From the NCBI GenBank assembly GCA_036785375.1, contig JAWMAR010000650.1, positions 372,001-436,000 of the forward strand: a stretch of 64,000 nucleotides of DNA. Reading direction: 5' to 3'. How positions within the stretch are numbered: position 1 is the first letter of the stretch; every line of letters starts with the position of its first letter. Under the pieces are notes generated by a model, which saw only the letters and a program-made list of their open reading frames with translations, was not told where the DNA came from and did no database searches. Made by a program: the position numbers and the translations under genes. The stretch comes from Leucoraja ocellata (taxonomy: Eukaryota). Shown here piece by piece: positions 9,087 to 57,899 of the stretch.

Positions 9087-9099
9087 GTTTAGAGGGATA

Positions 9100-11774: not shown

Positions 11775-13749
11775 TACCTGTCCAAATTCATTGATTTCAT
11801 TGAATATTCACCCTGACTCTACCCATAATTAAACTGCATCCAGCTGCTAATGGATACAACAAATAATTTATTATTTTAACTACTATATTGAAAACTACTT
11901 TAAACAATTATGGCAGAAACGTCAGATTTCATGATCTTCCATAACTCAGGGAGCACAAGCAGTAAAGGGCCTGTCCCACTTACATGACATTTACAGGCGA
12001 CTGCCGGCACCCATGGTAGGTCATGAGAGGTCTAAAAAGAGTTGTGGTGTTTTTCTGGTCACCGCTGAATTTTTAACGTTGAAATTTTCGGCAACCTATC
12101 ACGGGGGCGGGGGGGCAACCCCTACAAACCAATCATAAATAAAGATCATACAACACATTAATTGACAGTTCCCTAACCCAATCACAAAACACACCATTAC
12201 ATTGTTTCTACATAACGTTTCTAATGGAAGACATTTCCCCTAACTAAAGAAACATTTATCCAGGTAACATAAACAATTCGAGCAAGGCTCCATGCCTTGA
12301 CCAATCACAAGATAACAGTGCAAAGACCCTGCGATATAGTTAACAGTGGTATTATAACATACCTTTCCCCAGCCAATCCCATTCATGCATTTGCAGCAAG
12401 GCTCAGCTCTTTCTGCAAAACCCTCATACATATTAACAAAAGAGAGGACATTGGTCTTCACCCTGTGTTTAGTTTCCTCCCAGGACCTAGGCATTCTAGA
12501 GCCATGAGCCTCATGGCTTTGCAGTGTTTGCAGAAAGATGACAAGCACGTTCTGCAAAGGCAGAAATCCTCCATTTTGTCACATACTAAATTGGCCAATA
12601 TTATCAAATGTTCAGCCATTAAGTTCATTCAAAAATACATATTGTAAATCTGATCATAAGTAAATCAATAGAGATGTGGAATTGTACAGGAAAATGGTAT
12701 TCACGTCGAAGTTCAGCCATGATTGTGATGAATGGCAAAGCAGTCTCAAAGGGAGTAATGGGACACATATCCTGCTTTCTGATATGCTTAAGTTTTTTAT
12801 TCAACAAACTCTGAAAGAGAGCACCTGTAGCAACTCAGCAGGTCAGGCAGCATCTATGGATGGAAATGGACAATCGACATTTCAGTTGAGACCTCTCATC
12901 TGGACTGAAAGAGTAGAGGGGAGATAACCAGAATAAAATGGTTAAGGGAGAGATAGGGCATGAGCTGGTGGATGAGCAAGTGATAGGTGGATTGCACAAG
13001 AGCAAGTGATAAGTGGATATAGGTGAGGGGGTGGGGGTTGGTTGGCAGATGGAGTCAGGTGGAGGAATGAAGGGTGGAGATGATGATATTGGGGTATTCA
13101 GTAGAGATAACATCATATACATTCCTTTCTAATCAGATGAACAGGACTATTGAGCAGTTTTGAAAGAAAGCAATTAGTTCAGGTAGTGGTTTAGTTAGTT
13201 CAGACATATCTGAACATAAATAGACAACTAATAATTCACCATGTTGCTCTACATGTGTGTCCCATGGACTTAAAGGGGTGCGATGGAGGTCTATACCAAG
13301 GTGATCAGTTTGAAGAAGAGTTATGGTTTTGATGGAAAATTTGGATAATAGAAATGAGCAAATGTATAAACTGGTGGAATAAATTGGCTGAATAATTATA
13401 GAAATTGAAAGCCCAGGCCTGACATTTAGGGTTTTGAAACCGCAATTGTTAATAAATTATGGAAAATATTTTCCAAGGCATGGACATGGAAGGAAGTCAT
13501 GCTGGACAGAGAAAGAGAGACAGTAATACAAGGAACTGATCACAGAAGTTGTATTGTTGTAAGGCTAAGTGTGAATGGAATGGTGAAGGAGGTACATATA
13601 TGGATAGCGGAATTTAGATCCAATGACTGTAGAGAGGGGAGTTTTTATTGTTGTAAGGCCTCGCTACAAGACTTTTTTCAACGAACAAGAAAAAATGAAA
13701 GTTATTTCTGTTAGATGGGAATGTAAAACTATCTCAGGCCAACGTAAAA

Positions 13750-14450
13750 TGTCAGAAATACGCAGCAAATACCTCGTCTGTGAATAAAGAAAATGTGTGT
13801 TATAACTTCAGATCAACAATCTGAAGCAGTGAATCTGTTCATTATTGCCCAGATATTGCCAGCATTTTACAAATATACTCCAGATTTCCAACATCTGCAA
13901 TAATTTGTTTTTACTTTAATGGTGGAATTTCTATATTTTTCCTAATAAATTATGACTTCTATTATACATACAAAAAAGCAACATACATTCGGTAAATTAT
14001 CTTACCTATACCTTCTGAAACCTTTTTGTCTCCTTTTTAATTTAATATTTCACCCCAGTGTTTTAAATGTCTGCACATCACTCCGGGTGGAAATTATGAA
14101 AGACTATTCCGTCTTCTGTTTGTTCTATTCAACTTAAAGCTTTGTTACCGAGTCAGTTTCCCTAGTTTCCAACAGGCAAGAACGTAATATTTTCCTTGAA
14201 GACAGAAACAGCTGGAGTAACTCAGCAGGTCAGGCGCCACCTCTGGAGAAAAGGAAGAGGTGCCATTTCGGGTCGAGACCCTTCTTCAAACTGAGTCAGG
14301 ATCTGAAGTATATTTGTAAATTGCTGGCAATATCTGGGGAATAAGAAACAGATTTGTTGCTTCAGATTATTGATCTGAAGTTATAACACACATTTTCTTT
14401 ATTTGCAGATGCAGGCCAATTTGCTGAGTATTTCTGCCATTTTCTGTTGG
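13750..14450. repeat. Local inverted duplication (~13750-13885 vs ~14301-14450) beside a Penelope-LTR fragment (14200-14300)
   Basis: The reverse complement of 14301-14400 matches 13786-13885 with only scattered mismatches. Confidence 0.85.
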
Positions 14451-21344: not shown

Positions 21345-21860
21345 CATAGACATAGAAACATAGAAAATAGGTGCAGGAGGAGGCCATTTGGCCCTTCGTG
21401 CCAGCACTGCCATTCATTGTGATCATGGCTGATTGTCCCCTATCAATAACCCATGCCTGCCTTCTCCCCATATCCCTTGACTCCACTAGCCCCTAGAGCT
21501 CTAGCTAATGCTCCTGTCCCAGTTAGGAAACCTGAACGGAAACCTCTGGAGACTTTGCGCCCCACCCAAGGTTTCCTTGAGGTTCCCAAAGGTTTCCAGA
21601 GGTTTTTGTCTGTCTCCCTACCTGCTTCCACTACCTGCAACCTCCGGCAACCACCTGCAACCTCCGGGAACCGCACGGAAACCTTGGGTGGGGCGCAAAG
21701 TCTCCAAAGGTTTCCGTTCAGTTTTCCTAAGTGGGACAGGGGCATTAACTCTCTCTTAAAACCATCCAGTGACTTGGCCTCCACTGCCCTCTGTGGCAGG
21801 GAATTCCATAAATTCACAACTCTCTGGGAGAAAAAGTTTTTTCCCACCTCAGTCTTAAGT
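21345..21860 (-). mobile_element. CR1 3' end containing a MITE at 21509-21744
   Basis: FFSQRVVNLWNSLPQRAVEA; inserted fold-back MITE tgctcctgtcccag...agtgggacaggggca, homologous to 37088-37315. Confidence 0.85.
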
Positions 21861-22600: not shown

Positions 22601-25044
22601 TGGATGAGTTGCACTGTGAGATGAAAAATGTGCACACTCTATTTTTGTGAAGGTCTGTAGAACCGTATCCCATTTGCACACAGCATGATTTCTGCTGGTC
22701 CAGTTCTTCATTGCCCTGCCCAGTTCCTTTTAATTCTCTGGAGCCTCTCCTACCGCCTACTGTGATTTATGCCATGCATTTATTCAATAGCAACCCTACT
22801 CTACTGCTGTAAAGGCTTTGCTTTTATTCTGACCAACTTCTTTATAACATGGCTGCAACGATTACAGCTGCTGGGCTTCACACTGTCAGTTGCAAGAACT
22901 TGCAGTGCATTGAAACTGACACTACACAGTGAAATGTAATAAAGCTTTTCTATCAACCTCACAATTTAACTTTCTGGTCTTTATACAACTTTCACCATTA
23001 GCATTAAGGTAACCCATACTTTTGATTTAACACTGATAAACAATATGGAGCAATTTCCAAATATATTTCGAAATGTAAGAGTGAAATATTTGCATGGACA
23101 TTATTGTATATGTGTTATAATTTGATTTGCTAGTGCATCATTTTGAACACATACTGAAAAAAAAGAAAACATTAGTCTTTTTAATGTGAAAGTGTTTCCC
23201 AGTGATACCTCATTGGGCTAATTTTATAACTGCCAGAAAGACCTTGTTAACTCCCCACACAGGAATGCCAAGTTCATCCAAACCCCACTTGAAACAGAAA
23301 GAGTTTGACAGATTCCCAATTAAGTTTGCCAGCCTCTGCTCATCAGTGTACAACAGCAGCATACAGGATGGATTCTGAGCATTTTAAATAACCTTTGACA
23401 AGGCTTTTAAAAAAAAAAACAAATCTCCTGCGGGAACTACGTATGTCTGTGCAAAAATGAATTATACAAATCAAGAGCTAAATCAATCCAATTAGCATGA
23501 CTAAGCCATGCGATACGGTACCTTGTAGTTTTCCTTAAGGCTGAAATTAAACTGTAGAAGTTACTCGTGGTCCCAGAAATGTAAAAGCACAACAAAACAG
23601 AATAGCATCTTTGCCTCCCACGAACTAGTATTGTATATTTCAAAGCACTGAAAGCTGTCTATCAGATTAATATTCAGATGACAATGTTTCAGTATGAGCT
23701 CATAAGCTTATTCCAAATCTATATATTTTGCCACTTGACTGGTTCAGATTCCAGAGTTCAGATTTCAGAGTAGCTCGCTATACTCACCTGCTTATCTTTT
23801 TTGCATAGGATTTTCAGCCCTTGGCTAATTTCTGAAATAGATTACTTTGCAAAATTGAGTTGCTCTTTCAACAGGAGATGAAAAACTGACATGAAAGCAT
23901 AAGTGATTTCTGCACCCCTCATGGGTCATTTCTGAATCATTCTGCCATGGAGGAAGAGTCAAGCAACTCATATTGAATGCATCTAAAACAACAGCACATT
24001 TAACAACATGAGCAGGAGTCAATTACAATCTTATCCGTTTTCCATCAATCAAGATGAAATGCACATCATTTAATACTATTAGAATAAAACATACTTGTTA
24101 ACTGTTGACACCATCCTCCATTGGATTCAACCATTTGGCGCTAATAATAACTATTCTTTTGGAATGCAATAGTGTAACATGAATCAAAATGGGCCTGGGA
24201 TAGTGGTTACCCAAAATAATATCGGCGTTCACTGTCATTACATTGTGCAACTTTCAGCATTCTGTAGGAACTGTATGCAGCCATTAAATGCAGAAGTCCA
24301 GCTGTGTCTATCAGTGATATTCTTTCACCAGTAACAATGAGGCAATCAAGTTAGAATCAGTGATCTGCTATGAACTTCAATGTTTTCTGCACTATTCATA
24401 CTCCAAAACTATTCACAATCTTAACCCTTAGTTCGATCAAGTATTACTGAGTTTGCTCAATCTCAAAATTGCTGCTGATACACAGACACCCAATAAAACT
24501 CATTTTTGGAGTCTCAGAAAACCATTAAACATTGAACATTTTTACAGTTTTTGCCTTATGCGTGCTCATATCTTCATTTCACTTTCTACATGATGCTTCA
24601 AGATGCGTCATGGCACACATTAGCCTCCCAGATGGCCTACATTCACTGTGCTTTGTCTACTGCCACAGCAGATCGACAGCAAATACCATTTCCCCGGTTT
24701 CATGTTTCATCTCTGGGAAATCTAGACAACAATCACACTTACACTGGACTTTCATTTATTGACTATAGCTCCATCTTGAACATCATAATCCCATCCAAAC
24801 TCATCTGCAAACTCCTGGTCCTCAGAATCACCATCTCCTCTGTCACTGGATCCTTGACCTTCTGACAGGTAGATCTCAATTGGTGAGGATAGTCAATAAA
24901 GCACCCTCCACAATAACTCAACTCGAGTGCCCCACAAGGATGTATTCTCAGCCCCTTGACATACTCCCTATGCACTCACGTGGACTCCCTATGTACTCCC
25001 TATGATTGTGCAGCCAAATCTTCCTCCAACTCTATCTACAAGTT

Positions 25045-25203
25045 AGACATAAAATGCTGGAGTAACTCAGCAGGACAGGCTGCATCTCTGGATAGGATGG
25101 GTGATGTTTCAGGTTTAGACCCTTGGGGCTGTCCCGCTAAGTTACTCCAGAATGTTATGTCTATCTTTGGTTTAAAGCAGCATCTGCAGTTCCTACGTAC
25201 ACA
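25045..25203. mobile_element. Penelope-LTR-derived fold-back mini-element
   Basis: Inverted arms; exact 14-bp TSD tctatctacaagtt at 25031-25044 and 25204-25217. Confidence 0.8.
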
Positions 25204-25324
25204 TCTATCTACAAGTTTGGAGATAATACCACTGTGGTGGGCTAGATCTTGAAAAATAACGAGACAAGACAGAGTACAGAAAGGAGATAGAAACATGGTG
25301 TCAAGACAACAACCTCTCCTTCAA

Positions 25325-26155
25325 CTCCGACTGCTTTGGTGCCACCTCCTGCACCTGCACACAACTGACTGACTTCATCCACTTCACCACTAACCCATCC
25401 GGCACTGAAATACACCTGGACCATTTCCGACACCCCTACCATTCCTTGACCTCACTATCTCCATTGCAGGTAATAGACTTCTGACCGACATCCACTATAA
25501 ACCTACTGACTCCCATGGCTATCTGGACTACACTTCTTCCCACCCTGCTTCCTGTAAGGACTCCATCCCCTACTCCCAATTCCTCCGTCTACGCCGCATC
25601 TGCTCCCAGGATGAGGCGTTCCACACCAGGGCATCTGAAATGTCCTCATTCTTCAGGGAACGGGGGTTCCCCTCCTCCACCATAGATGAGGCTCGCACCA
25701 GGGTCTCTTCCATACCCCGCAACACTGCTCTCTCTCCCCATCCCCCCACTCGCAACAAGGGCAGAGTCCCCCTAGTCCTCACCTTTCACCCCACCAGCCG
25801 TCACATACAAATAATCCTCCATCAGTTTCGTCACCTCCAACGTGACCTCACCACTCGCCACATCTTCCCATCTCCCCCCATGTCTGCCTTCTGCAAAGAC
25901 CGCTCCCTCCATAACTCCCTTGTCAATTCTTCCCTTCCCTCCCGTACCACCCCCTCCCCGGGCACTTTCCCTTGCAACCGCAAGAAATGCAACACCTGTC
26001 CCTTCACCTCCCCCCTCGACTCCATTCAAGGACCCTTTCTTCTCCCCCCCCCCCACTCACCAGTCTGAAGAAGGGTTTTGGCCCAAAACGTTGCCCATTT
26101 CCTTCGCTCCATAGATGCTGCTGCACCCGCTGAGTTTCCCCAGCTTTTTTGTGAA
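25325..26155 (+). mobile_element. Penelope-like element fragment (RT C-terminus, Cys-rich linker, pLTR)
   Basis: PFLDLTIS...YKPTDSHGYLDYTSSHP..CKDSIPYSQFLRLRRICS and GTFPCNRKKCNTCP. The GIY-YIG region is deleted and the sequence joins directly to a pLTR with ctgaagaaggg...cccaaaacg. Confidence 0.88.
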
Positions 26156-27515
26156 CCTCCCCTTCAATATCAGCAAGACAAAGGAACTAGTGTTGGACTT
26201 CAGGAAACATAATGATGTATATGCCCTAATCAGAATCAATGGTGCCCAAGTGGAAATTGTCAAGAGCTTCGTTTCTAGATGTAAATATCACCAACAATTT
26301 GTCTTGGACCAACCCCGTGAAGCTGCAGCCAAAAAAGCACACCAATACCTCTACATCCTCAGGAGAGTAAGGTAATATGACATGTCTCCAACAACTCTTA
26401 ACAACTTCTACAGAAGTACCAGAGAAAACATATGATTAGAGTGCATCACAGCTTGGGTTTGGAACAGCTCTATCTGAGACTGCAGAAAATTGCAGAGGGC
26501 TGAATGTAACCCAGTCCATCAAACAGGCCAGATTCCTCACCATCGACTCACAGTGGCACTGCCCTACAGTTGCTGCCTTACAGCGCTAAAGACCCAGGTC
26601 TTGTCTATGGGTGCTGTCTGTATGGAGTTTGCATGTTCTACTGAGTAGGTTTCCTGCGGGCGCCCCGCTTTCTGCCCAAATCCCAAAGTTGAACGTGATT
26701 GTAGGTTAATTGGCCTCTGTAAATCGTCCTAGTGTGCAGGATAGAACAGGGCAGCCTGAATACAGTGCCTGTTTACACGCTGTATCTCTAAAATAAATTA
26801 AACTAACCTATATGTCACACTGAGTCAGGAATGCAGCCAATATTAGCAATAATATTTTCATGCCAATCATTTCCTCTTTTCCATCGGACAGAAGATACAA
26901 AAGCTTGAGAGCACACACCACCAGGAACAGCTTTTCCCCCAGTGGTATCAGACTACTGAATGGCTCTTCCATAATTTAGGGCATAGTCCTGATCTTGCAA
27001 ACTACCTTCATTATAGAAACTGGATAATTTCCTCTGTAACTGGAACACTGCAATGCCGTGAAACTGTATTCAGCGCTGGTATTTTTCTCTTTGAAGTCTC
27101 TATTGTACTTGTGTATGGATCAATTGTACGCCTAGTATGGCTAGTCTGATTTCATTCAATGGTACACAAACAAAAGCTTTTCACTGTATCTCAGTGCATG
27201 TGACAATAAAAATCCAATGTTAATACAATGGTAATTTGTGGGTGCCAGCGCGCATGCACGGCTGGTAACCATTCGGGACGGTACATACACATCATTTAAA
27301 TCTTGGTGTGTCCCCGTTTTGAGTGAGAAGCAATTGAGAATTGTACATCCTGGTGACTGCAACACCAGGCTACCAGTTCCTGGAGCCATCCTTCTGAGGT
27401 TCCACACACGAGGGAAGCTTAGGATTGCCTCATGAAGACTTAAAAGTATGTTGATCAATCCCATAAGAAAAATAATGATCTTTCTTAGCATTATTTGAAA
27501 AAAAAGTGATAGACA

Positions 27516-29760: not shown

Positions 29761-30322
29761 TACCAGCAGTATATCTATCCTTTGTGGTAATATACTTCAG
29801 TTCCTAATCTCCTTCCTAGTCCTTCATAGGGCTCCCTCAATCTGTAAGGATGGATTATATTTTTTTACAAACTGCAGATGTTTGAAATCTAAACCAAAAA
29901 CAGAAAATATTGGAAAAAAACTAAAGCAGGTCAGTCCACGTCTATGGGAAGAGAAGCAGTCAATGCTCTGGGTTAGAGACCCTTCGTCAGGATGTATTGT
30001 AGCTGTGTTAATTAGACTTGGAGACCTAGGCGATTTGTAAGGATGATGTCCCGAGTGGAAGGCAGTTTGCAGCAATGTGATGGACCCATTATTAAAAACG
30101 TTAAGTTCAAGTAATAAACTAACACATGTGAAGCCATTAGGTTTATTATTTGTCCCCAAGAAGGCATAGGCATCTGCACCCACTCCTTACAGATCAATAT
30201 TCAACTACCAACTTGCCCAATTAAATCTGTGCGATGTTCAGTCTGGCCTTCGGCATCTATGGGGCTTTGTGAAAGGGCATTTTCAAAACCAACAGCCACC
30301 ATTAGAAACATTTATTGATGCA

Positions 30323-32919: not shown

Positions 32920-33600
32920 CACAAAGTCATAGAGTCACAGTCATACAATGATACAGTGTGGAAACAGGTCGTTCAGCCCAACTTTCCCATACCTGCCAAC
33001 ATGTCCCAGCCACTCTGGTCCCACCTGCTTTTGGTCCATATCCTTCCAAACCTGTCCTATCCATATACCTGTCAAACTGTTTCTTAAATGTTGGGATAGC
33101 CTCTGTCCCAACTACCTCCTCTGGTAGCGTGTTCCATACACCCACCACCCAATGTGTGAAAAAGTTACCCCTCAGATTCCTATTAAATCTTTTCCCCTTC
33201 ACCTTAATCCTACGTACTCAGGTCATCGATTAACCTATTCTGGGCAAGAGATTCTGTGTATCTACCTGATCTATCCCTCTCATGATTTTATACACCTCTA
33301 ATAAGATCACTTCTCATCCTCCTGCACTCCAAGGAAAAGAGTCCCACCCTATTCAACATCTCCCTATAGCTCAGACCCGCTAGTCCTGGCAACATCCTTG
33401 TAAATCTTCTCTGTACCCTTTCCAGCTTGACAACATCTTTCCGATAACATGGTGCCCAGAACTGAACACAATGCTCTAAAACCAGCCTCACCAACGTCTT
33501 ATCCAACTGCAACATGACCTCCAAACTTCTATACTCAATACCATGACTGCGGAAGGCCAATGTTGCAAAAGTTGACCACCCGATCTACCTGCGACTCCAA
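32920..33600 (-). mobile_element. CR1 LINE 3' region
   Basis: LEHCVQFWAPCYRKDVVKLERVQRRFTRMLPG and FFTHWVVGVWNTLPEEVV. Confidence 0.9.
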
Positions 33601-33822
33601 GTGTTGGAGTAACTCAGCGGGTCAGGCAACATTTCCGGAGAACATGGATACAATTTTGCATTGGGACCCTTCCTCTGACTCATATCTGACTCAAGTCTGA
33701 AGGGTCCCGACCCAAAATGTCACCTATCCATGTTCTCCTGGAATGCTGCCTGGCCCGCTGAGTTAGTCCAGCACTTTGTGCCCTTTTGTGTGAATCAGCT
33801 TCTGCAGTTCCCTGTTTCTATG
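33600..33822. mobile_element. Penelope-LTR-derived fold-back mini-element (diverged)
   Basis: Inverted arms ggagtaactcagcgggtcagg / cctggcccgctgagttagtcc. Confidence 0.7.
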
Positions 33823-34388: not shown

Positions 34389-35825
34389 ACTTAACTGTGT
34401 TTGGCTCATGTTTTAGATTCAATTCCTTCTTGTAGTTCGTAAAGGTGTTGCACTAAGTGAAGGATCTGTTCATCGCAATATACATCTGAGCAATCACTTT
34501 CTTTAGTAATTGTGAGGTTTACAGGCATTGTCTGCATTAGTATACTGTCGGCTGTCCTACATCTCCACTGGTATGCAAAATGAAAAAATAAAATTTGCAG
34601 TAACATTAAAAGTAACCCACACTGTTTTCACAATGAAGAATGTCATATAGTAACATCAATCAATTGCAATTCATCCAATGGCCTGTGTGAAGTACTATGC
34701 AGTGCAAAGAAGTACCGGTCCAAATTAAACAGTGAGCCGTCTTTCTGTAAGGCAGATCAATGTCAGTTTGTAACAGAAATAGAATTATTCCTCTCATTAT
34801 GCCAAAACTAAGAAACTAAATGCAGAAGTAACACGGAGCTGGAAGAACTAATCACCAGAAATTATCGACAAAACTAATCCACAGAACTTCAGTAATTGGA
34901 GGGAGATGGTGGGATCTGGGGAAGAATAAGTATAGAGTTGGACTGTAATCAGCAGAATAACTAGTCTCTAGGAACTACTCCACAGAAATCGTTAACAGAA
35001 AAAGGAATTTTAAGAACAATCTGAATACAACTCATCAGACCAGGACAGCAGAACTACAAAAGCAGAGAACAAGATGAAAGTATTTAGCAGAATAGTGGAA
35101 GTGAAACATTTAACAATGATAACCGGTGACAAAATAAAATGACAAGTTAAGGAAAATATACATGCACAACTTAATAGAAACAGAATGAAGGAAAAACGTG
35201 ACAGGGCTATACAATGGAAATAAGTGATGAAAGAGCCTGGAGCAGTTAGTGAAAGAAGTAGATTTATTTTCAACTGCACAAACCCATCGAATAAGGTAAT
35301 GATGAGGCATGTTGTGAAATTTATACGATCTCTGTTTTGGTTTTCCAATGTGTGCTACAATATTAGTACAATGTAATTTCTTACCTTTTTTAGCCCTATA
35401 GTCCTATACTTTGAAGTTTAAAGAGCACAAATATTCAACATAGATTACAGCTAAATTATTTGGTGCCTTGACACGAAGCAGGGGAATTGTCTTAATTGAT
35501 ACATATAGCTCTAATGTAATTGTGCTCGAGCTTTGCTTAGTTAGTATTCCCAATGAAATGATAAACATTCATGGTTTTGACAGGAACAATTAACTGGAGG
35601 AAAGCTTTGGGAATGAATTCATGTTGTTTCATTTAATGGCCAGAACCATACCCTCAATGCTTATGAATGCTTTCAATCAAAGAAACTTTTGTTTTGTGGT
35701 TACAATTCAGGTTATTAGCTTCATGCCAAATACCAGTACACAAATTATACATTCAAGCTGTTTTTGTGTGAGGGTGTTCCACGAAGCAATGTTTGGCCTC
35801 TTCCATCCAAAATCGCCCAGATTCA

Positions 35826-36112
35826 CACAAAATGCTGGAGTAACTCAGTGGGACAGGCAGCACCTCTGGAGAGAAAGAATGGGTGATGTTTCGGGTCCAG
35901 ACCCTTCTTCAGACGAGCGTCAGGGGAAAGGGAAACGTTTCCCCTCCCTTGACTCATTTACCTTTTCCCTGACTCTAGTCTGAAGAAGGGTCCCTACGCA
36001 AAATGTTACCCATTCCTTCTCGTCAGAGATGCTGCCTGTCCCGCTGAGTTATTCCAGCATTTTTTTTTGTCTATCTTCTTTTTAAACAAGCACCTGCAGT
36101 TCCTTCCTGCCC
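35826..36112. mobile_element. Penelope-LTR-derived fold-back mini-element with a hammerhead core on each arm
   Basis: Long inverted arms; 14-bp TSD atcgcccagattca / atcacccagattca at 35812-35825 and 36113-36126. Confidence 0.82.
35884..35913 (-). ncRNA. Minimal hammerhead ribozyme motif (Penelope type)
   Basis: Minus strand CTGAAGA-A-GGGTC-TG-GACCC-GAAA-CA-TC: CUGANGA and GAAA intact around a 5-bp stem II. Stem III CG has changed to CA. Confidence 0.6.
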
Positions 36113-37087
36113 ATCACCCAGATTCAGTTTGGAACAAGTTGGGTCCAATGCTAACAGAACATTGACAGTATGCCAGGATCTCTAATCACTGGAGATCAAA
36201 AGAAAAGTTTGATTGAACCAATGACATCTCAATTTACCACACCATCTGTTCATACAATGAGAATTAAATTGCTAGGTTAATACTAATAGCGGCAAAATTG
36301 AGGGCAATATTGTGCTACAAAAGCTTCAAATCAGCCCACTTAAACTAACACTAACAGCCAGCAGCGCAGCTGATTTCCATTCTCTCCCTAACGAGCTAGA
36401 AATCTATGCATAGGCCAACTGGTCAGCATTTGCTTCCAACTAAGATCAACAGGAACTCAAATACTGCCTGAAAAGCAACACATAATGTTGCTAACTTTTT
36501 CTTAGCAACTTCAGGAAAATTGATTGCAATGATCTTTTGTTTTGGTATGTGAAAAAACCTATTGCTTGATATCACAACAACTTAGTCTATAGCAACAACT
36601 GACCATGCCAGTGGAAAGGAGAATTGAGCACATTGTCAACATGGGTCCTGTTTCTTCATGACCCTGCAATATTATTTCTGATGTTAACTACCATTGATTG
36701 TCCAATTATTGTGCACATTTATTATTGTTGGATAACCAGGATTAACATTGCTGAATCCACCACCACCATCATCATCCTGGGGGTCACCTGAAAATTAAAA
36801 CGGCAGCACATAAATACTGCAATTTCAAGAGCAAAATTTAGGTCCTTTCAGCAAGTTTCTCCAAATCCTCAAGGCACAGGTCAGGATTGTACAGAAATAC
36901 CTTCCACTTGCCTTACACAGTGCAGCTCCAACAAAGCTCACTTTTCTGTGTGGCGGTTCGTGTCTCATGAATATAATTGAGTTTTTTTTAAGGAGGTTGA
37001 CAATAAGTGCAGTCATAGTCATGGTTTATTTGGACTTCAGTAAGGCCTTTGGTAAGGTTCCATATGGTAGACTGCTCTGGAAAGTTA

Positions 37088-37315
37088 TGCCCCTGACCCA
37101 CTTTGGAAACCTGAACGGAAACCTCTGGAGACTTTGTGCCCCACCCAAGGTTTCCGTGCGGTTCCCGGAGGTTGCAGGTGGTTCCCGGAGGTTGCACGTA
37201 GTGGAAGCAGGTAGGGAGACTTACAAAAAAACCTTCGGGAACTGCACGGAAACCTTGGGTGGGGTGCAAAGTCTCCAGAGGTTTCCGTTCAGGTTTCCGA
37301 AGTGGGACAGGGGCA
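37088..37315. mobile_element. PIF/Harbinger-like fold-back MITE
   Basis: TIR tgcccctgacccact / agtgggacaggggca; TTA duplicated on both sides. Confidence 0.82.
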
Positions 37316-37379
37316 TTAGATTGCATGGATTCCAAATAGAGCCAGCTAACTGTTACATTTACCTTGGTACAGATTGTCT

Positions 37380-40300
37380 TCATGTCTGAACCAGAGAGTG
37401 CTGGGTTAAAAGCTTGATTTTCAGATTGAAAGCCTGTGAGTAGTAATATGCCCATTGTAGTGCGTGGGTCTCAGAATGAGGCAAGTAGTCCGCAGTTTGA
37501 GAAGCACTATACTTTATTTCCTCCCGGTTCAGGGGAAGACGAAACCAGGGGAAGATGGCACCCAAACCCTGCCTTTTATACCCTCCGGCTAAGGACCGCC
37601 TCCGGACTGCACCACTCCTGTGCCGAGGGGTTCGGCAGTATAATGGGACGACCCTTAGGAGCCGCCACAGGACCCCCCCCCCCAGAACCAGAGGCACAAA
37701 ACGCACCGGCGGGCGCACGACCCGGCCGGCCCGCGTGCGGAAGTCAGCAGATCCCGGGGCTTGCGGGGGCGTAGGTGGAGGGACAGGTCGAGGGACCGGC
37801 GGGAGGACAGGTGGAGTGACAGGTGGAGGGAGTCGTGAGGGGGGACGCCCTCGGGGCCGAGGTTGAGCAACCAGCACCGGCTGGTCAATGTCCAGGTGCG
37901 CCGGCTTCAAACGGTCAATCGACACGGCCTCCGGCCGGCCCCCCATGTCCAGGACAAAAGTCGACTGCCCGTGTTCCAGCACCCGGAACGGGCCCTCGTA
38001 CGGCCTCTGAAGTGGCGTCCGGTGGGCATCACGGCGCAGGAAGACGTATGGGCAGACCGTGAGGGCCATTGGCACGTGTGGTCGAAATGTCCCATGGCGG
38101 GATGTCGGGACGGGTGCGAGCCTGCCAACTCGCTCGCGAAGGCGTTGAAGGGCGGAGGAGGGCGTTTCCTGATGCTCCGGCGCCGACGGCACGAACTCCC
38201 CGGGCACTGTGAGTGTTGACCCGTACACCAGCTCCGCCGATGATGAGGCCAAGTCCTCTTTGGGAGCGGTCCGGATGCCCAGCATGACCCACGGCAACTC
38301 GTCCATCCAGTCCGGGCCGGTGAGCCGTGCCTTCAATGCCGCCTTCAGCTGCCGGTGGAACCTCTCCACCAGACCGTTAGCCTGCGGGTGGTAAGCCGTG
38401 GTGTGGTGCAGCTGCACCCCCAGCAAGCGAGCCATGGCTGACCACAGCTCGGAGGTGAAATGTGGCCCCCGGTCGGAGGAGATGTGCGCCGGCACCCCGA
38501 AGCGAGCAATCCAGTGCGCGGACAACGCACGAGCACACGTAGCCGATGAGGTGTCAGCCAACGGAATGGCCTCCGGCCACCGCGTGAAGCGGTCCACCAT
38601 GGTCAAAAGGTGGGTGATGCCCCGGGACGGTGGAAGGGGCCCCACAATGTCCACGTGGAGATGGTCGAACCGCCGGTGAGGTAGACCGAACTCCTGGAGA
38701 GGTGCGCGGACATGGCGCTGGATCTTTGCTGTCTGGCACGGGATGCAGGTGCGAGCCCAATGGGCAACTTGCTTGCGCAGACCGTGCCACATGAAGCGAG
38801 CTGCCACCAGTGCCGTTGTCGCCCGGATTGATGGGTGAGCCAGTCCGTGGATGACCTCGAACACTCTCCGGCGCCAGGTGGCAGGGACGATGGGGCGCGG
38901 CTGACCGGACGACACATCGCACAGGATTGTCATACCCCCAGGACCGAGAGGGACATCCTCAAGACGGAGTCCGGAGATGGCAGTCCGGTAGGTGGGCACC
39001 TCGTCGTCCGTGAGCTGTGCCGCCGCCAGAGCAGAATAGTCCAATCCGGGCGCCACCTCGAACACGGCATTTATAGCAGGGCGGGACAATGCGTCGGCCA
39101 CCCGGTTCTCTTTCCCCTTGACGTAGCGGATGGCTGTGGTGTACTCGGAGATGTAAGCCAACTGCCGCTGCTGACGTGCGGACCAGGGGTCGGAAACCTT
39201 CTGCAGGGCGAAAGTGAGCGGCTTATGGTCGGTGTAGGCGGTGAACGGGCGGCCCTCCAGGTAGTAACGAAAATGGCGCACAGCCAGGTACAGAGCCAGG
39301 AGCTCACGATCGAACGCACTGTACTTGGTCTGCGCGCGGTTGAGGTGCCGACTGAAGAAGGCCAGAGGCCGCCAAACTCCGCCCGTCAGCTGCTCCAGCA
39401 CAGCACCAACTGCCGACTCCGAGGCATCCACAGTGAGAGCAGTCGGGGCATCTTCCCGCGGGTGCACCAGCAGCACGGCCCGAGCAAGGGCCTCCTTCGC
39501 GCCGTCGAAAGCTGCCTCCGCCTCGTGGGTCCACTCAACGCTCTTCTGCTGCCCACCCGCCAGAAGTTGATACAGGGGCCGCATGATGTGGGCCGCGGAT
39601 GGCACGAAACGATGGTAGAATGCCACCATGCCGACAAATTCCTGCAGGCCGCGCACCGTGCGTGGGCGGGGAAACCGACGGACTGCGTCAACCCTGTCAG
39701 GTAGGGGAACTGCGCCTAGCGCAGTCACGCGGTGGCCGAGAAAGTCAATTTCGTTGACCCCAAAACGGCACTTGTCCAGGTTGATGGCCAAACCATGCTC
39801 GCTGAGCCGCTGACAGAGCTGTCGAAGGTGAGCGCAGTGTTCCTGCTGCGAGCGGCTGGCCACCAGGATGTCGTCCAGGTACACGAACACGAATTCGAGG
39901 TCCCGACAAACCCCGTCCATGAGGCGCTGAAAGGCCTGTGCAGCGTTCTTGAGGCCGAACGGCATCCGAGTAAACTCGTAAAGCCCGAATGGCGTGATGA
40001 TAGCCGTCTTGGGTACGTCATCCGGGTGAACCGGGATCTGGTTATAACCCCGCACCAGATCCACTTTAGAAAAAAATGTGGCCCCAGCCAAATGGGCCGT
40101 GAAGTCCTGGATGTGGGGTACGGGGTATCGATCCGCTGTTGTTGCAGCGTTCAGCCGTCGGTAATCCCCACAAGGTCGCCAGCCCCCGCTTGACTTAGGG
40201 ACCATGTGGAGTGGGGACGCCCAAGGGCTGCTCGAAGGGCGGACGATCCCCAAGGCCTCCATCGTGCGGAATTCCCGCCGTGCCAGACGCAGTTTATCTG

Positions 40301-40862
40301 GTGGCAGTCGTCGTGCTCGTGCATGGAGGGGTGGGCCGGTAGTCGGGATATAATGTACAACTCCGTGGCTGGGGGTTGCTGAATGAAACTGCGGAGTGAG
40401 AATGTCCGGGAACGCAGCCAAGATTCGTGCGTATCGGGAGTCCACGGACGCCAGTGGCCGCCCCACCGATTGACCCAAGCGCAATGTGATCGGCTCCATT
40501 GTAGTGGCGTTGACCAAACGCTGACGCCCGACGTCCACCATGAGGGAATGCGTCCGGAGAAAATCGGCCCCGAGCAATGGTTGGGAGACGTCGGCAACGG
40601 TAAAATTCCATGAAAAATGGCAGGAGCCGAGCACGATGGGAACCATGCGCAGTCCATATGTGCGGATGGGGCTGCCGTTCGCCGCGGTGAGGACGGGCCC
40701 CCGCTTACCGGAACGAATGTCGGCCAGCGAAGGGGGCAGGACGCTGAGCTCCGCACCTGTATCCACGAGGAAGCGAGTCCCGGAGCGCCGATCCCAAGCG
40801 AAAAGGCGGTGAATTTGGCCGGCCACCGCGGGGACTATTGGCAGCCGGCCCAGGCGTTTCCC
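37380..40862 (-). CDS. pol: Pol polyprotein (protease, RT, RNase H, integrase), reached by -1 frameshift
   Basis: Protease FLVDTGA; [11 protein letters not shown]; RNase [14 protein letters not shown]; integrase HHCC, DDE (VDIVG, SDRG, LVERF) and GPF motif. No internal stop; the first stop lies beyond the element. Confidence 0.93.
37456..37669 (-). repeat. 3' LTR of the Gypsy element
   Basis: Identical to 41818-42031. Minus strand carries TATAAAA (~37574-37580) and AATAAA (~37513-37518). Confidence 0.95.
40817..40862 (-). promoter_or_regulatory. Programmed -1 ribosomal frameshift signal
   Basis: Slippery heptamer G GGA AAC (40856-40862) in the gag frame, 5-nt spacer, then an 11-bp stem GGCCGGCTGCC/GGTGGCCGGCC. 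Confidence 0.8.
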
Positions 40863-41788
40863 GGGAACGTGCATGGCTGGCGGCATTGTCGTGCTGCAGC
40901 ACCCCAGCGCTGATGGAAATAGCACCAGCTCCTTGTGTTCGTGCTATTTTGAGCTTGCCTGCCCCTGCTGGTGGTGCCTGCAGCTTGCTGGCGCTGGACT
41001 GCAGGTGCAGTACCCCTCACTGCCGCTGGGGGTAATCGAACGGGCCGTCGGGCTGGAGCTGTCACTCCTTCCACAGCTCCCCCGCCCCACCGGAGGAAAT
41101 CGGGAGCTGCTGGGCTGACGTCATCGGTGTGCCTGCCGACGGCCAGCGCGTTGACGTCACCGGCGTGCCTGCCGACGGCCAGCGCGTTGACGTCATCCCG
41201 GCGCGTCGACCTCAGCGCGACCTCGTCTCTGCTGACGCCCAGCGCGCTGACGTAATCAGGGCGCGCCATCCACATGGCGTCGGCGCGCCTCCCGAGGGCC
41301 CGAAGATCAGCAAACGAGGCGTCGGTGAGTTGCAATCGAATGTAGGCCGGCAGCAGATGCAGGTAAGTATATTCAAACAACAGGCATGGCGTGTGCCCGT
41401 CTAATAACGCCACCATTTCCTTTAGGAGGGTAGATGGCCGCCGGTCGCCCAGGCCCCCCATATGCAGGATCCTACCTGCCCGCTCCATCCTACTTAGTCC
41501 ATAAATTTGGAGCAGGAGCTGTTTCAGGCCGAGGTATTTGTCATTGTCCGGGGGGGCTGCGAGGAAGTCCGATACTTCTTCCACCGCATCCTGGTCGAGG
41601 GCTCCCACCAGGTAATAGAAGCGGGTGGCATCGACCGTGATGCCCCGCAGGTTGAACTGGGCCTCCGCCTGCTGGAACCAGATGAGCGGCCGTGTGGTCC
41701 AGAAGCTGGGCAGTTTTACGGAGACCGCGTCTAGAGACAGGGTCGGGCTGGCGTGTGAGGAGGTAGGGCTTTGTTCTGTCTCCATCAT
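40835..41788 (-). CDS. gag: Gag protein (317 aa from the first ATG after the PBS)
   Basis: [25 protein letters not shown]-terminal motif; C-terminal CYFH-x9-C-x3-C (CHCC) motif typical of the CsRn1 lineage. Confidence 0.88.
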
Positions 41789-41817
41789 GATGCCAATGGA
41801 GCATCGGGGGTCACCAA

Positions 41818-42031
41818 TGTAGTGCGTGGGTCTCAGAATGAGGCAAGTAGTCCGCAGTTTGAGAAGCACTATACTTTATTTCCTCCCGGTTCAGGGGAAG
41901 ACGAAACCAGGGGAAGATGGCACCCAAACCCTGCCTTTTATACCCTCCGGCTAAGGACCGCCTCCGGACTGCACCACTCCTGTGCCGAGGGGTTCGGCAG
42001 TATAATGGGACGACCCTTAGGAGCCGCCACA
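41818..42031 (-). repeat. 5' LTR of the Gypsy element (promoter)
   Basis: Identical to the 3' LTR; followed on the minus strand by the PBS at ~41807-41816. Confidence 0.95.
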
Positions 42032-42666: not shown

Positions 42667-42883
42667 AGGGCCTGTCCCACTTTCATGACCTAATTCACAA
42701 CCTCTGCCGAGTTTGCCCTTGACTCGTACTCACAGCATGGTTGTCAGGAGGTTGTAGGTAGGTCATGATGCTAGTTGTAGGTACTCGTGGCATCAAGTAG
42801 GTCGGGCCGTTTTTCTAGCCTGATGAAAAATGTCCCCAAGTAAAAAATGTTGTGAATTAGGTCGTGAAAGTGGGACAGGCCCG
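42667..42883. mobile_element. PIF/Harbinger-like MITE
   Basis: TIR agggcctgtcccactttca / tgaaagtgggacaggccc. Confidence 0.8.
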
Positions 42884-44264: not shown

Positions 44265-45663
44265 AGTCAAGCCTGACTTATTGAAGGTGCTGGGGATTTG
44301 GTTCGAGGGGGTGGAGTCGTGTGACAAGAATTGGCTGGAGAGGATAGCCAAGGTGAGGAAGAAACGGGAGCTGTGGAAGCAGCACTCCCTCTCTAAAACG
44401 GGGTCGTCGGGTGTGAGGTGCTCTCGGGGCTGCTGTACTTGGCGCATGTGTGACCTGTCCCTCCTTCCTACGCCACAGGGATCACCGGGCCATCTTCCAG
44501 TTCATCTGGGGGTCAAGGATGGACCAGGTGCGACGGGCCACAATGTACAAGTCAGCAGACAACGGGGGTAAAAGTGTGCCCAACGTCGCCCTCACCCTGA
44601 TGGCCACCTTCATGTGTGACTGCATCAGGCGGAGTGTAGAGCCAAGGCACGTGGGCACCAAGTGTCACTACCTGCTGAGGTTCTACCTGTCCCAGGTGTT
44701 GCAAAGGATGGGCCTGGCACAGATGCAACGCAATCTGCCAGTCAGCTGGACATTGCACACCATCTGTCATTTGTGGAAAGGTTCTTCCGGACCAACACCT
44801 TTGACCACAAGTCCATCGTGCAGTGGTCAGCACGGAACGTCCTGCAAGGCACTGCAGGGAAAGGACTCGATGGATCCTGTGGTGTGGTTCACAGAGCGGA
44901 CTGCCCAGCTTGTCTGGCAAAATGCCTCATCACCAGAACTCACCAACAAGCACCAATTCCTGGCTTGGCTGGCGGTGAGGAGAGTCCTCCCAGTCAGATA
45001 CTTCCTGCACCGTCGGAACCTCACTGCCAGCGCACACTGCCTTCAGGACGGCTGCTATGGAGAGGAGACGGTTGCCCACCTCTTTGCAGAGTGTGGATTT
45101 GCAAATAAAGTCTGGAGAGGTTTCCAAAGGTCCCTGTCACGATTTAGTCTGACCAGCTCTGTCCCAGAGGACTCTGTGATTTATGGACTGTTCCCAGGGA
45201 CACATTCCGAGACTGACTTTGAGTGCTGCTGGAAGGTCATCAACTCGGTGAAAGAAGCTCTTTGGTCTGCCTGAGCTTTATTGACCGCCCAACGGAGCGA
45301 GATGTCCATCAGGGAATTTTGCCAACTGGACCGCTGCAGACTGCAGGAGTACGTGCTGAGGGAAGCACTGAAGCTTGGTGCAGCCAACGGCAAGGCTCGG
45401 TGGGGGAGGACCACATTCTAGGGTCAGGGTATGGGGGGCAGAGTGTGGTGGAGACATCCCTCAAAATAAGGGAAGAGATTTCACGCCAGTGGGCGACATG
45501 AGTGGCAAGGGTGGAGGATAAAATTATGAAATTTGAGCAATGTGCATAAACAGTATTGAATGTTTGTATAGCCTCTGAAAATGTCGGATGAATTTTTTGC
45601 ACAGTTCATGTATTGAACATATTTAGTACTTGAATAAAGACTACTTTGAAAATTAAAAAAAAG
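44265..45663 (+). mobile_element. 5'-truncated Tx1/L1-group LINE (ORF2 C-terminus, frameshifted)
   Basis: LKVLGIWF, IFQFIWG and zinc knuckle CLQDGC...ETVAHLFAEC; 3' aataaa and A-rich tail. Confidence 0.85.
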
Positions 45664-47314
45664 ATGAGAGAAGTGGATACAAGGGAAAACCCCTCCTGAT
45701 CCCATTCTGGCTTGGAAAAATATTGCCTTCCCTGCAATATTGCATTGGTGACCTAATTCTGAAAAATACTAGCTAAATGAACTTAGCACTACATTCACCA
45801 GAAGGAGAAGAGCCATTCCCAAACACAGATCATTGGCAACTTCTCATGAGCAATTGGGAAAAGTCAATAAATTCTGGTCTTACTCTAAATACCAACATTC
45901 TGAAACATTAATTAAACTCTGTGAATTCAAAACTTGTTCTAAATCTAAGGCACACTAAAATCGGATTGATTGATGAACGCTGATGTTAGATGCCAATCTT
46001 CGATCACAATTTACCTTTATTCAATTTAAATATTTAGAGAGCACCAATTTTCCTTTTCATTCCAATTTTATTTGTAGTCGCTTCCCTCTCATGGGTGTTG
46101 CCGACAGCATTAAATGTCTATCCCAAATTGCTTTAAGGAAAGAGCCAGTGAATCAGATTTCTGACGGTGTAACCTTAGTGTGGAATATAAAATTTGAGAA
46201 ATGTGATAAGGCAAAAACCTGAACTGCCTCTCCTATTCTCAAATCAAGTGTGGAACTGTAAATTCACCCTAGTAGTGGTCTTACATCTAGGATTGTATTG
46301 TATTCTGTTCTCTCAGTATTGATGTCAAGGCATAATTTTCTGTTAGAATCTCTTATTAGCACCATTTGTCCTAATAATCCCCTGAAGTGCAGTTGATTAG
46401 TTTAGGGATATTCACAGATTTTCTTTTACAGAAATCATTCAGGGGAGAGTGGAAGATAATACTGCCCATATAGATTGTCTGTTGTGCCCAATGCAGCGAC
46501 ATTGAACTGATTTTGAGCCTGATTGTGAAAACTGCATTACTAAGAGCAAATTGTTAATCTATTGAAATAGAGACCTTATGTTATATTCAAATGAGTTTAT
46601 AGCCTGTCCGGTGCTGTTTCTCATAACAATTGCCTTTTACATTTTAACCAAGATGAGACTGGCTATCAGAGATGTAACCCTCCAGATTTCATCTCAGTGG
46701 AATTATAAATGTTGAGTTGCTTTAGGCAATAACAGAACTGACTAAATAACTTCTAATGATGTGCAAAACTAATTAAATGTCAGGCTGCAGTCTGAGTAGT
46801 AGCTAACTGTCAGGTAGCTGTTATGACAAAGTGCAGATAATCATGGCTCTCTGAATTCTGATTATTTAGCTCTGAAAGACTAAACTAATTTGAGAATATG
46901 TGATCCATTTAAGTGGATTGCCAGGAGAAAAAAAATTAAGCCTAGGGCATTTTGATCCAAATTTTTTGACAGATTGTTCAGCCCTATGAGGACGGAAATC
47001 TATTTAGATGATTCCGCTGGGATTGAAGTCTGCCACAGGGGAATTGTGCCTTTTTCGCATTGATAAAAAGAGATTAGCAGAAAAAAAAAAAAAAAAAACT
47101 GAGAAAGAATGAAGACACTGGAAATATTCAGCAGGTCAGTTAGCATCTGTGGAGAGAAAAATGGATAACGTTTTAGCCTGATGACCTACGATAAAAAACA
47201 AGGAAAATATAAAAACTAAACAAATATCGTTGAGAGAAGGGGGTTGGGTTGGGTAGTGTGGTGCGGACATAGGGATTGCCTGTGATCTGGTGATGCTGAG
47301 TGAAGTTGGTGAGT

Positions 47315-48905: not shown

Positions 48906-49506
48906 TTGTTCAAGACGTGAAACATTAATCGTGTCTCTTTCTGCAGACGCTGCCTGACCTGCTGAGTGTTCCCACCATTTTCTGTTTTTATTTCAGATAT
49001 CCAACATTTGTACTTTTTTATCTTCATTTCAGACTATATAAACACTGCTGGATTTACAAGTTCAACGTTTCCATAATTTGGTCAGCATCTGCTGCTCTCT
49101 TAACCTTGCGCCTTCTCCTTCTTCTACCCGCACAAGAGTCATTGCTTCTTATGGAATTTAGAAACATAGAAACATAGAAAAAAGGTGCAGGAGTAGGCCA
49201 TTCGGCCCTTCGAGCCAACACTTCCATTCAATATGATCATGGCTGATCATCCAAAATCAGTACCGCGTTCCTGCTTTACCCCCATATCCCTTGATTCCGT
49301 TAGCCCCAAGAGCTATATCTAACTATTTGTAAAACAAATTAACAATCAACACGATATGTGTATATTTCCGGTTGTGTTTTATAACTTGATCTCTGGAATG
49401 ATTTCATGATTGACTCATTAAAGAGAATAACTGAATTAGTATCAGCATACATGTAATTGTTAACCTAATGCATGCTTTCTTCACGTATGTTAACATTGCA
49501 CACTAA

Positions 49507-49824
49507 AAGCCCTGTCCCACTGTACGCGTTCATTCAAAGAGTTCTCCCGAGTTTGCCCTGATTCGAACTCTGAGATTTACGGCAATGGCCGCTCGTCGGT
49601 ACTCGGGGCTCTCGTGGACATTTTTCAACATGTTGAAAAATCTTCACAAGTCTTCTTGAATTTACTGTGTTTCCCGAGTACCTGCCGGTAGCGTTACCAG
49701 CCGCTAAGAGATGTCCCCGAGCTCCGACGTACCCGCGACGTTCATTCAACGTGCTTACCACGAGTTTGATTTTTTTTTTAACTCGGGAGAGCTCTTGAAT
49801 GAACTCGTACAGTGGGACAGAGTT
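49507..49824. mobile_element. PIF/Harbinger-like MITE
   Basis: TIR gccctgtcccactgtacg / cgtacagtgggacag. Confidence 0.8.
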
Positions 49825-50719
49825 TTATGTTGGTAAGCACAGTAACTGCCTAGTCAGAACTTTGATATCAGCATTCACTTCTTAAAATGTTTTTGAAAAT
49901 AATTAATGGATTTTATATAAATGTATTTTGCAATGTCCAAGAATCTCCAAAATGGTTTAAAAGGGTGTTGATTGTAATCTCATGGTTTCAAAAATCAGGA
50001 AGGAAGTTTAATCCAGTCTGAAGAAGGGTCTCTATTCCTTTCCTCCAGAGATGCTGCCTGACTTGCTGAGTTACTCCAGTATGTTGTGCCTATCTTCGTG
50101 GTAAACCAGCATCTGCAGTTCCCTCCTACACAAAAAAGTGTACACAGCACTTTTAACCAACCAATTGTTACTGTTTCAGTAATTTATCATTGTTTTGTAC
50201 ATCCATCACTGCTTTAACTTTTATACATTGCAAAAAAAAAATCTAAAGCTGTGAAATACTGTAATTACAGCATTCTATTGCAATCATTTTATGGAAATTA
50301 CAAAGCAATTTGAATATAAACTGCGCCAGCCTTGCACAATGTCCTGGGCACGTGAAATAATCTATCATCTGAGATTGGTTTTTAAGTGGAAACTGCTGTC
50401 TTCACGTACTTGCCTTGATGTACTGAAATGAGAAATGAGAGAGGGAATCAACTCAAACGATTTTCATTCAAGTCTATTTCCAGACAGGGTTTATTTTCCT
50501 TATTGAAAGTGGAGATGAAAAAAAATAAAGAGTCCTCTGGCAATGAATGAGCTGCAAAGTTATAGCTGTTGATCTGCAGTTGGAATATCTGCAACTTGGA
50601 TTATGCATTGCAGGATCTCAGACTGTAACATCATTTGGCAGCATGTTAGAAAGCTGAGCATCCCATATTGTGAGGAAGATGGAAAAGCTGCCCGTACACT
50701 GTCCATCACTTCACAACTA

Positions 50720-56550: not shown

Positions 56551-57899
56551 AACCTTCCCCCTCTGACTATCCTCTGCTGCTCACACAATGACTTCTCACA
56601 GCTCCTAATAATTTCACCCAAAGACCCAGAGCTTCGAACAATTCAGTGAAATAACGAAATGCTAACTAATCAGACACTGATTACCCATAAATTTAAAATA
56701 AACACCTTACGATGAAAAAAAAAAACAGAAGAAATATTCTGCTGTTGTGAAAGTTATGTTGAAAATAGTGAATATTGGAATAAAATGTATTTACATTTCA
56801 AATACTTAATTAATGGAAAGCACCCTTTGTATAAATATTCTTAATTTGAAGAAAACAGAATGCAGAGTTGTCCAACTGGATTTTATCTGCTGGGATTATT
56901 ATGCAAATTGAGATTCATAGAGTAGAGATGAGCTACTGTCCTCCAACATCAGGGAGTAGGGATCAGCCAAGCACAGTATTTGATGAGCAGAGCAATTGAG
57001 TGTACTTGTATTTTGTGCTATTAAAACTCAATGGTCATTACTCAACATGTCTGATTCTGATTAAAAGCACCAACACCGCAAGCCATAATCCTATACTGTG
57101 TGTTCATTTTCAATTAAATCTTTGATGTTCATTAAAGATGAATGTATCTTTACTGAACTAATTAAATCTCTTGTGTTTTACATCCATCTCCGATGAGATT
57201 CTATATTAAAGATACCATTCGCAGGAGTTTAAAAACAGTTAATTCTTTTCTTTAAATGGACATTCATTATAAATATTCCATTTGTTGTGGGAATATCTAT
57301 ATTCTCCATTTTAAAGGCATCAGCAGATATTTTTGACTAAGCAAGATCTGATAGATCATTAACAAGTATTTCACGTTGAATATCTACAGGAAGCAAAATT
57401 GCAGTGTGAAGAAAGGTCGCAACCCGAAAAATAAAATCTTTCTGTTTCCCTCCACAGATTCTGCATGACCCGCTGAGTATCCCCAATGGTTTGATTTCTG
57501 CTCAAGATTCCAGCAACTGAAGTCTCTTGTGTCTCCAAATTTAATTATCCATTCCATTATTTCACCTTTAACTAAATTTACATTAATGGTGCTCTCTTCT
57601 CAGCTCCCTCCAGGAACGATGCCACATACCAGAGTGCAGCTAAGATCATGAGCATGAAACTTACAACACAACTCTCATTCTCCCAGTCACGTCCATGTTA
57701 ATCGTTTGAGAAATAATGTTCCATGTGTTTGCATCACTGGAAAAGTAGAATCATGTCACTGATTTATTTGAACAGTATCCATCGTGTCACTGATCGTTAG
57801 AATAATATCCACATCCATCTTGATTCTTCCAAAATTGGCATTAACACTGGTGTTTTGTTGGTAATTTAGCCTTCCTTGTGAGGTCTTTACAAAGTAACC

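Follow-up and report, generated by a model that had tools for sequence, protein, structure and literature searches.

The short hairpin elements found in the window, by which we mean the whole stretch of 64,000 nucleotides analysed here, are probably de novo, heavily truncated insertions of a Penelope/Poseidon-type retroelement, each primed from both nicks of one staggered cut. Both outer ends of these elements are 3′ ends of the same retroelement, one lying at a position that we call site 1 and the other at site 2, about 40 nt beyond.

Architecture and target duplications of the two-armed copies

Four elements, at 9100-9274, 11552-11774, 25045-25203 and 35826-36112, had originally been described as pairs of inverted Penelope pLTR arms plus a tail, and we found this layout at exactly those coordinates, with a tail of about 40 nt on one side. 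Each reads as an antisense arm, a sense arm and a tail that ends just past GCAGTTCC, and the inverted arm pairs match over 107 nt at 83%, 78 nt at 85%, 58 nt at 84% and 39 nt at 87%. A fifth two-armed element was observed at 33599-33820, where the original prediction had listed only a fragment near 33600; also missing from that list of further fragments were single arms near 4900 and 47100 and the ORF-linked copy at 25325-26153. When the arms are numbered from site 1 (the last base of the TGTCTA motif), the tail-less arms begin at −1 to −4, while the tailed arms continue to about +40. The tail was present on one end only in all four complete two-armed copies, and none of the two-armed copies contains an ORF remnant.

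We searched the 42-nt flanks of each element for the best direct repeat, without bias as to length. The repeat of about 14 bp that had been predicted was found to be exactly 14 bp in 4/4 elements, with 0–1 mismatch, so that the lengths are tight rather than broadly distributed. The duplications are located at 9086-9099/9275-9288 (1 mismatch; total span 9086-9288), 11538-11551/11775-11788 (1 mismatch; 11538-11788), 25031-25044/25204-25217 (no mismatches; 25031-25217) and, on the plus strand, 35812-35825/36113-36126 (1 mismatch). Scores of this level were obtained for 0.12% of 5000 random flank pairs and for none of 20 mismatched element flanks. The fifth copy, 33599-33820, has a truncated left end and no duplication, and therefore a duplication of exactly 14 bp is present in four of the five two-armed copies. 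The tail-less ends overlap the duplication by 4, 1, 1 and 1 nt. The host sequence to the left of the 11552-11774 duplication (11520-11551) resembles the tail end of the element at ∼12/14 bases; this likeness is seen for one element only, at a target that is itself a repeat, and may be due to chance.

In 35826-36112, the tail-less arm (35826-35936, minus strand, antisense on the plus strand) has its outer end at site 1 (−4), and the sense arm (35937-36073, plus strand) is followed by a 39-nt tail (36074-36112, plus strand) that runs from site 1 to site 2 and is found on this end only. The inner ends of both arms lie beyond −113, a perfect 14-nt palindrome (35930-35943) occupies the junction between them, and the copy folds with a z of −18.4. 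We aligned contigs to window positions 35500-36400 at 80% likeness, using runs X1, X8 and X13 from three organisms. The right junction of the insertion was bridged by contigs of X8 and X13. In X1, the closest run, neither junction was bridged under the 31-letter rule. None of the listed contig pieces crosses the hairpin centre, and no orthologous empty site was seen among the 15 joints listed. An assembly artefact was rejected on the grounds that the arms differ by 13–17% and that contigs of two other organisms bridge the right junction. In one of these two organisms, 28 of 644 flank positions differ from the window. As two other organisms carry the insertion, with flanks differing by about 4% or less and arms by 13–17%, the insertion is probably older than those splits.

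The inner arm–arm junctions of the five two-armed copies are all different. The tail-less and tailed arms extend to −52 and −80 in 9100-9274, to −92 and −84 in 11552-11774, to −84 and only −34 in 25045-25203, and to −93 and −101 in 33599-33820, so that six of the ten inner arm ends are clustered at −80 to −101. Three of the five junctions have a hairpin or palindrome (6–7 bp), and the other two are without a clear palindrome. The tailed arm is the longer one in three copies; the tail-less arm is longer by 50 nt in 25045-25203 and by 8 nt in 11552-11774. Arms of the same element differ at 40/229 positions (17.5%), compared to 424/1832 (23.1%) between elements, and the true pairing ranked second among 120 permutations. 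Since partner arms are more alike than non-partner arms, each element derives from one source, and the elements come from several subfamilies. The duplications have diverged less than the arms (4/70 versus 41/318 differences at non-CpG sites, P = 0.04). This may mean that the arms were not identical at birth, although the comparison is biased by the selection of clean duplications and by decayed CpG sites.

A profile made from the arms gave 20 strong matches, all of them in its own training set, at 15 loci covering 2171/64000 bases (about 3.4% of the window), and a single weak match in the reversed window that served as control. Apart from the copies already mentioned, these include a minus-strand single arm without tail or detectable duplication (14195-14296), a plus-strand single tailed arm in which an internal deletion runs across the hammerhead, with no detectable duplication (50009-50132), and a minus-strand tailed arm cut by the window end (63896-64000). 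Older single arms are located at 4901-5005 (plus), 12802-12910 (minus) and 47101-47190 (minus), and older single tailed arms at 29865-29998 (minus), 48910-49020 (plus) and 57397-57535 (plus). Eight of the nine single-arm copies tested had no duplication around them, the arm near 4900 and the window-end arm at 63900 being outside this test.

Several further features were observed in the same window. The arm at 14195-14296 adjoins the right copy of a 109-nt inverted repeat (13777-13885/14301-14409, 90%) within 13740-14450, whose outer ends are faintly like an older pLTR end (E = 0.07 and 2.6) and which may represent an older fold-back family. Two related hairpin elements of ∼250 nt (21503-21750 and 37078-37325; arms of 102 and 96 nt) have similar translated content and share a CCTGTCCCACT-like end with shorter inverted repeats at 5611-6241, 10461-10672, 42668-42882 and 49506-49826, where the arms are displayed; these hairpins are like a MITE family. 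On the minus strand, 37452-42031 holds a Ty3/gypsy-type LTR retrotransposon with two 218-nt direct repeats that are 100% identical, an open gag-like frame (40835-41875) and an open pol frame of 1187 codons (37380-40943) encoding protease, RT, RNase H and integrase. This element is apparently young and has a G+C content of >60%, compared to about 42% around it. Decayed coding pieces of non-LTR retroelements lie at 60366-61808 and 44417-45274; in one, a PD-like nuclease region and a zinc-knuckle were recognised by eye (no Pfam hits), and the other has zf-RVT. An N run near 27200-27500 is an assembly gap, the window having 202 N altogether.

The parent element and its relatives

The copy at 25325-26153 provides the link between the arms and a coding element. 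It is a 5′-truncated Penelope copy on the plus strand, inserted within a LINE fragment and flanked by a 14-bp duplication (25311-25324/26154-26167; total span 25311-26167). It consists of a frameshifted RT/linker coding piece (25329-26035) and a pLTR that continues to 26153 without a tail. Homology starts at the RT catalytic motif at 25329 and ends at 26035, from where the copy crosses an internal deletion into the pLTR end; the nuclease domain and most of the 3′ UTR are absent, and there is no inverted arm. The pLTR end is the same as that of the arms, although it belongs to a different subfamily from the mini-elements.

The open frame at 25409-26068 matches proteins of whale shark, ray, bamboo shark and zebra shark at 61–66% and, over half its length, a thorny skate record at 81%, which points to an elasmobranch host, probably a skate. 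Homologues of the 25329-26035 piece carry RVT_1 followed by GIY-YIG, which is the Penelope domain order; the fragment itself gave no hits in a Pfam search, and the ORF piece had no matches in viral contigs. The Penelope pLTR origin proposed for the arms is borne out in that the arm sequence continues an RT/linker fragment whose homologues have both domains. The arms belong to an EN+ Penelope-like element encoding RT and then a C-terminal GIY-YIG, and the domain order together with the hammerhead suggests the label Penelope/Poseidon-type. Some elasmobranch proteins named as kinase-domain protein, chitinase-domain protein or nicotinamide riboside kinase 1 carry Penelope sequence, probably because the repeat was taken up into the gene models.

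The target of 25325-26153 occurs once only in a paralogous LINE at 459-530, which represents its empty site. A duplication score of this size is not rare by itself (9 of 150 random searches reached it), but the repeat is located at both edges of the Penelope sequence. As an ORF-bearing, non-inverted copy carries a 14-bp duplication, and the paralogous LINE has its target only once, the stagger is a property of the parent enzyme and not of the hairpin form. In total, five copies in the window have a 14-bp target duplication, a paralogous empty site being available for one of them; one of the five duplications ends in ATT, and no preference for ATT is evident.

Next, we considered distant relatives in metagenomes, using a scan with an alignment of 12 homologues and taking the best 80 of 468 related loci. 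A minimal hammerhead of the same kind was present in 23 of these best 80. Eight loci were checked for inverted arms: two end at a contig edge, one is not clearly a pLTR repeat and five were left. ORF-bearing elements with inverted arms occur among the relatives. Three of the five have perfect duplications of 16 bp (2 nt shared with an arm), 13 bp and 13 bp, and a tail on one end only; the other two (L010 and L056) have no duplication. A score of at least 13 was obtained for 8 of 1500 random pairs. In the three with a duplication (L023, L063 and L065), it is the short inverted arm that carries the tail, the long ORF arm having none; in L019, L035 and L066 the tail lies on the ORF arm. Among simple related loci, 1 of 17 had a duplication at the element edge (L071, 13 bp). 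In three of the four relatives that have a 5′ hammerhead, the long ORF starts around it.

Hammerhead core and origin of the stubs

The hammerhead ancestry of the mini-elements agrees with our data: the motif fits the minimal type I form, and the majority sequence of the family in the three genomic runs has an intact CUGAAGA-stem-GAAAC-GUC core, also restored in the loose-end consensus. In the window copies the core has decayed, as had been noticed from the sequence. CUGANGA is present in three of the ten arms, CUGANGA-stem-GAAA in one and the full minimal motif in none, and the losses are mostly at CpG sites. Rfam at its gathering threshold gave no matches in the 64-kb window. The sole arm with CUGAAGA, stem II and GAAA intact is the minus-strand arm of 35826-36112 (35885-35912), in which the cleavage triplet AUC breaks the ACGU palindrome of helix III; the sense arm has CUGAAGA at 35980-35986, with stem II and GAAA decayed. 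The proposal that each strand can bear one core was thus upheld for 35826-36112 and not for the other elements. When this hairpin is folded computationally, the whole core is base-paired on either strand; the cost of opening the core is 25 kcal/mol for the minus strand, which has the best core and is the strand computed. The cleavage position corresponds to −63. Eight of the ten arms continue past this point and none stops there, which indicates that the template RNA was uncut, and hammerhead cleavage was rejected as the cause of arm length.

We propose that each stub arose independently at its own site, as a dead-on-arrival insertion of a Penelope/Poseidon-type retroelement that bears an endonuclease and is present in high copy. 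The element's protein, probably a dimer, would nick both target strands 14 nt apart. Each 3′-OH would then prime its own cDNA, one from each RT start site, on the same uncleaved RNA; both cDNAs would stop after 35–135 nt and would be joined head-to-head, often at a short palindrome or hairpin, which would be the sole place where two same-sense ends can anneal. The arms might be short because the start sites used lie near the mRNA 5′ end, at the pLTR–ORF junction, leading to RT run-off. Penelope transcripts are reported to start inside the pLTR (PMC2377424). The cluster of arm ends at −80 to −101 could reflect such run-off at the RNA 5′ end or stalling at hammerhead hairpins, and the hammerhead itself would be a passenger. 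We entertain, more tentatively and with somewhat less than even confidence, a concerted integration in which one Penelope dimer, with a fixed stagger of 13–14 nt conserved to the distant relatives, would place each target end at one of the two RT start sites on a single RNA, yielding exactly one tail, the short form arising by run-off from a 5′-proximal pLTR–ORF junction. If this is true, self-priming would not be needed to account for the inverted pLTR or the one-sided tail, and the stubs would be a fossil record of the integration step.

Some observations weigh against two-ended priming. The two-armed copies number only five, and duplications are absent from 33599-33820, from most single arms and from L010 and L056. 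Two of the junctions are without a clear palindrome, and the duplications have diverged less than the arms. Tandem and tail-to-tail joins exist in the family. The anole Poseidon protein shows no strand difference in its start site and primes without homology (PMC11167929), so that this study, in the part compared, gives no direct support for a one-tail rule. Two-sided extension is also not obligatory, as the ORF-bearing copy is without an inverted arm.

That a cDNA (or an antisense template) was primed once and then folded back to prime itself, with a nuclease trimming the tail from one end, seems unlikely to us. It is the published reading of the inverted junctions (PMC3846280), as nuclease resolution is of the tail (PMC8557442), and it would account for the palindromes at three of the five junctions, for the private bases shared by the arms of one element and for the longer tailed arm in three of five copies. 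It predicts, however, that the tail is on the longer arm, and this fails for 25045-25203, L023, L063 and L065 unless there was a later deletion; the tail-less arm is also the longer one, by 8 nt, in 11552-11774, and the tail-less ends overlap the duplication in the way that primed ends do. A tail on the shorter arm means that neither of the two arms was copied from its partner, and these four cases are beyond what a simple fold-back can produce. Another possibility, which we consider about as unlikely, is that longer Penelope insertions with inverted arms lost their interior afterwards by hairpin- or microhomology-mediated deletion. Internal deletions do occur in the family within the window (25325-26153, and 50009-50132 with part of the hammerhead), and the relatives include ORF-bearing elements with inverted arms. 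Against this, no two-armed copy retains an ORF remnant, the clustering of six of ten arm ends at −80 to −101 is narrower than random deletion would give, and the outer ends would still require a two-ended origin.

The original prediction had offered two readings, a retrozyme-like population and a stereotyped abortive insertion product with a fixed cut stagger. The latter was supported. The former, a non-autonomous hairpin element that is transcribed, processed by its hammerhead and mobilised as a unit by Penelope proteins, we regard as very improbable. The family is very abundant (129,271, 81,512 and 102,123 contig pieces fitting the element in the three runs, which is not a copy number), its majority sequence has an intact minimal hammerhead, direct-tandem arm joins were seen in 40, 12 and 63 contigs of X1, X8 and X13 among the joints listed, and family sequence is present in poly(A) RNA. 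Elsewhere in these genomes, true retrozyme-like arrays could be present among the tandem joins. Nevertheless, the copies of the window are inverted and not tandem, unlike published non-LTR retrozymes, which are tandem arrays (10.64898/2026.07.22.740005); their junctions differ in 5/5 cases, they come from several subfamilies, their cores are decayed or sequestered by pairing on both strands, and the 14-bp duplication is shared with the ORF-bearing copy. No arm-to-arm joint exceeded 21 contigs per run among the 15 joints listed, with a further 780 joints unlisted, tail-to-tail joins being seen in 16, 5 and 21 contigs of X1, X8 and X13 among the same joints. These joint counts are weak evidence, since several joint ends are alignment ends; the recurrent ends 35914 and 36024 coincide with positions where 35826-36112 departs from the family. 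Of 7.3 million reads in a poly(A) RNA run from another organism, 17,112 fit the family, with the two strands represented about equally. Among these, 98% continue into unlike sequence, and the left flank and the far right flank are uncovered. As the reads run into unlike sequence and no pile-up of read starts or ends was seen in that run, the RNA data fit passive transcription inside host RNAs. No RNA dataset was listed as carrying the window stretch, and exact-pattern scans for the arm gave no match in the metagenome and prokaryote collections. Mobilisation as a SINE- or MITE-like unit was not supported: many copies would be expected to share one internal structure and junction, and 5/5 junctions differ, the contig joins pointing weakly in the same direction. 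A MITE of a DNA transposon was rejected, the arms being retroelement ends that are asymmetric (tail) and of varying length.

Comparison with known systems

As objects, the two-armed elements are ordinary, being truncated Penelope insertions in the published layout. An inverted pLTR, a one-sided tail and a target duplication are standard for endonuclease-bearing Penelope elements (PMC3846280, PMC8557442, PMC2377424, PMC8969392). The insertion units of EN+ Penelopes such as Pen2a_Av of Adineta vaga and the inverted-repeat Penelope of Drosophila virilis share with the skate copies the head-to-head inverted pLTR, the target duplication, a tail of 30–40 nt on one end, palindromes at the junction and strong 5′ truncation (PMC3846280, PMC2377424, PMC8557442). 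The skate copies differ in that both arms are only 35–135 nt, without an intervening ORF, and in a duplication of 14 bp compared to 8–10 bp in the Adineta examples.

The anole Poseidon protein cuts and extends both target strands in vitro and is predicted to act as a dimer; two RT start sites bound the tail, and unprocessed RNA is the main substrate (PMC11167929). The uncut template deduced for the skate agrees with the latter observation. Anolis Poseidon (PAc) and the skate family are thus alike in the start sites that bound the tail, in extension of both strands, in that hammerhead cleavage is not needed and in the absence of RNA ends at the cleavage site. They differ in that PAc has an AUG within its hammerhead core, where the skate core reads CUGAAGA; the main text on PAc is silent on inverted products and on duplication length (PMC11167929).

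The minimal type I hammerheads described from PLE pLTRs resemble the skate motif in CUGANGA, the G10.1–C11.1 pair, an additional base between positions 9 and 10.1, the palindromic 15.2–16.2 and the lack of helix III (PMC4209133). Those hammerheads are weak in vitro and require a tandem partner (PMC4209133), whereas the skate genomic copies have decayed, for the most part at CpG, and are sequestered within a long hairpin whose inverted partners are unable to form a tandem dimer. Animal non-LTR retrozymes, reported in one chondrichthyan, are likewise non-coding and derived from PLE pLTRs with a type I hammerhead, but form direct tandem arrays with at least two complete ribozymes (10.64898/2026.07.22.740005); in the skate elements the paired arms are inverted and have no more than one near-complete core.

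The value of the stubs is mechanistic, the origin of inverted pLTRs and one-sided tails being left open in the literature compared. In these abundant and very short copies, 300 bases are enough to show the two ends, the junction and the duplication, and the copies lead to three countable predictions: a fixed stagger, exactly one tail, and a tail on either arm. They also matter for annotation, as hairpins of this kind can readily be taken for MITEs, SINEs or retrozymes. Our literature search, with subscription reviews and repeat databases outside its scope, found neither a description of this elasmobranch family nor a two-ended model for Penelope. In LINE-1 twin priming, which is mentioned in 10.1101/2024.12.14.628481, both ends of the target prime cDNA synthesis, giving rise to an inversion inside the target duplication. 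This is the nearest analogue of the skate stubs, in that both target ends prime in each. The second primer of L1, however, acts internally and its pieces do not overlap, whereas the two skate pieces both start at the 3′ end and cover the same sequence.
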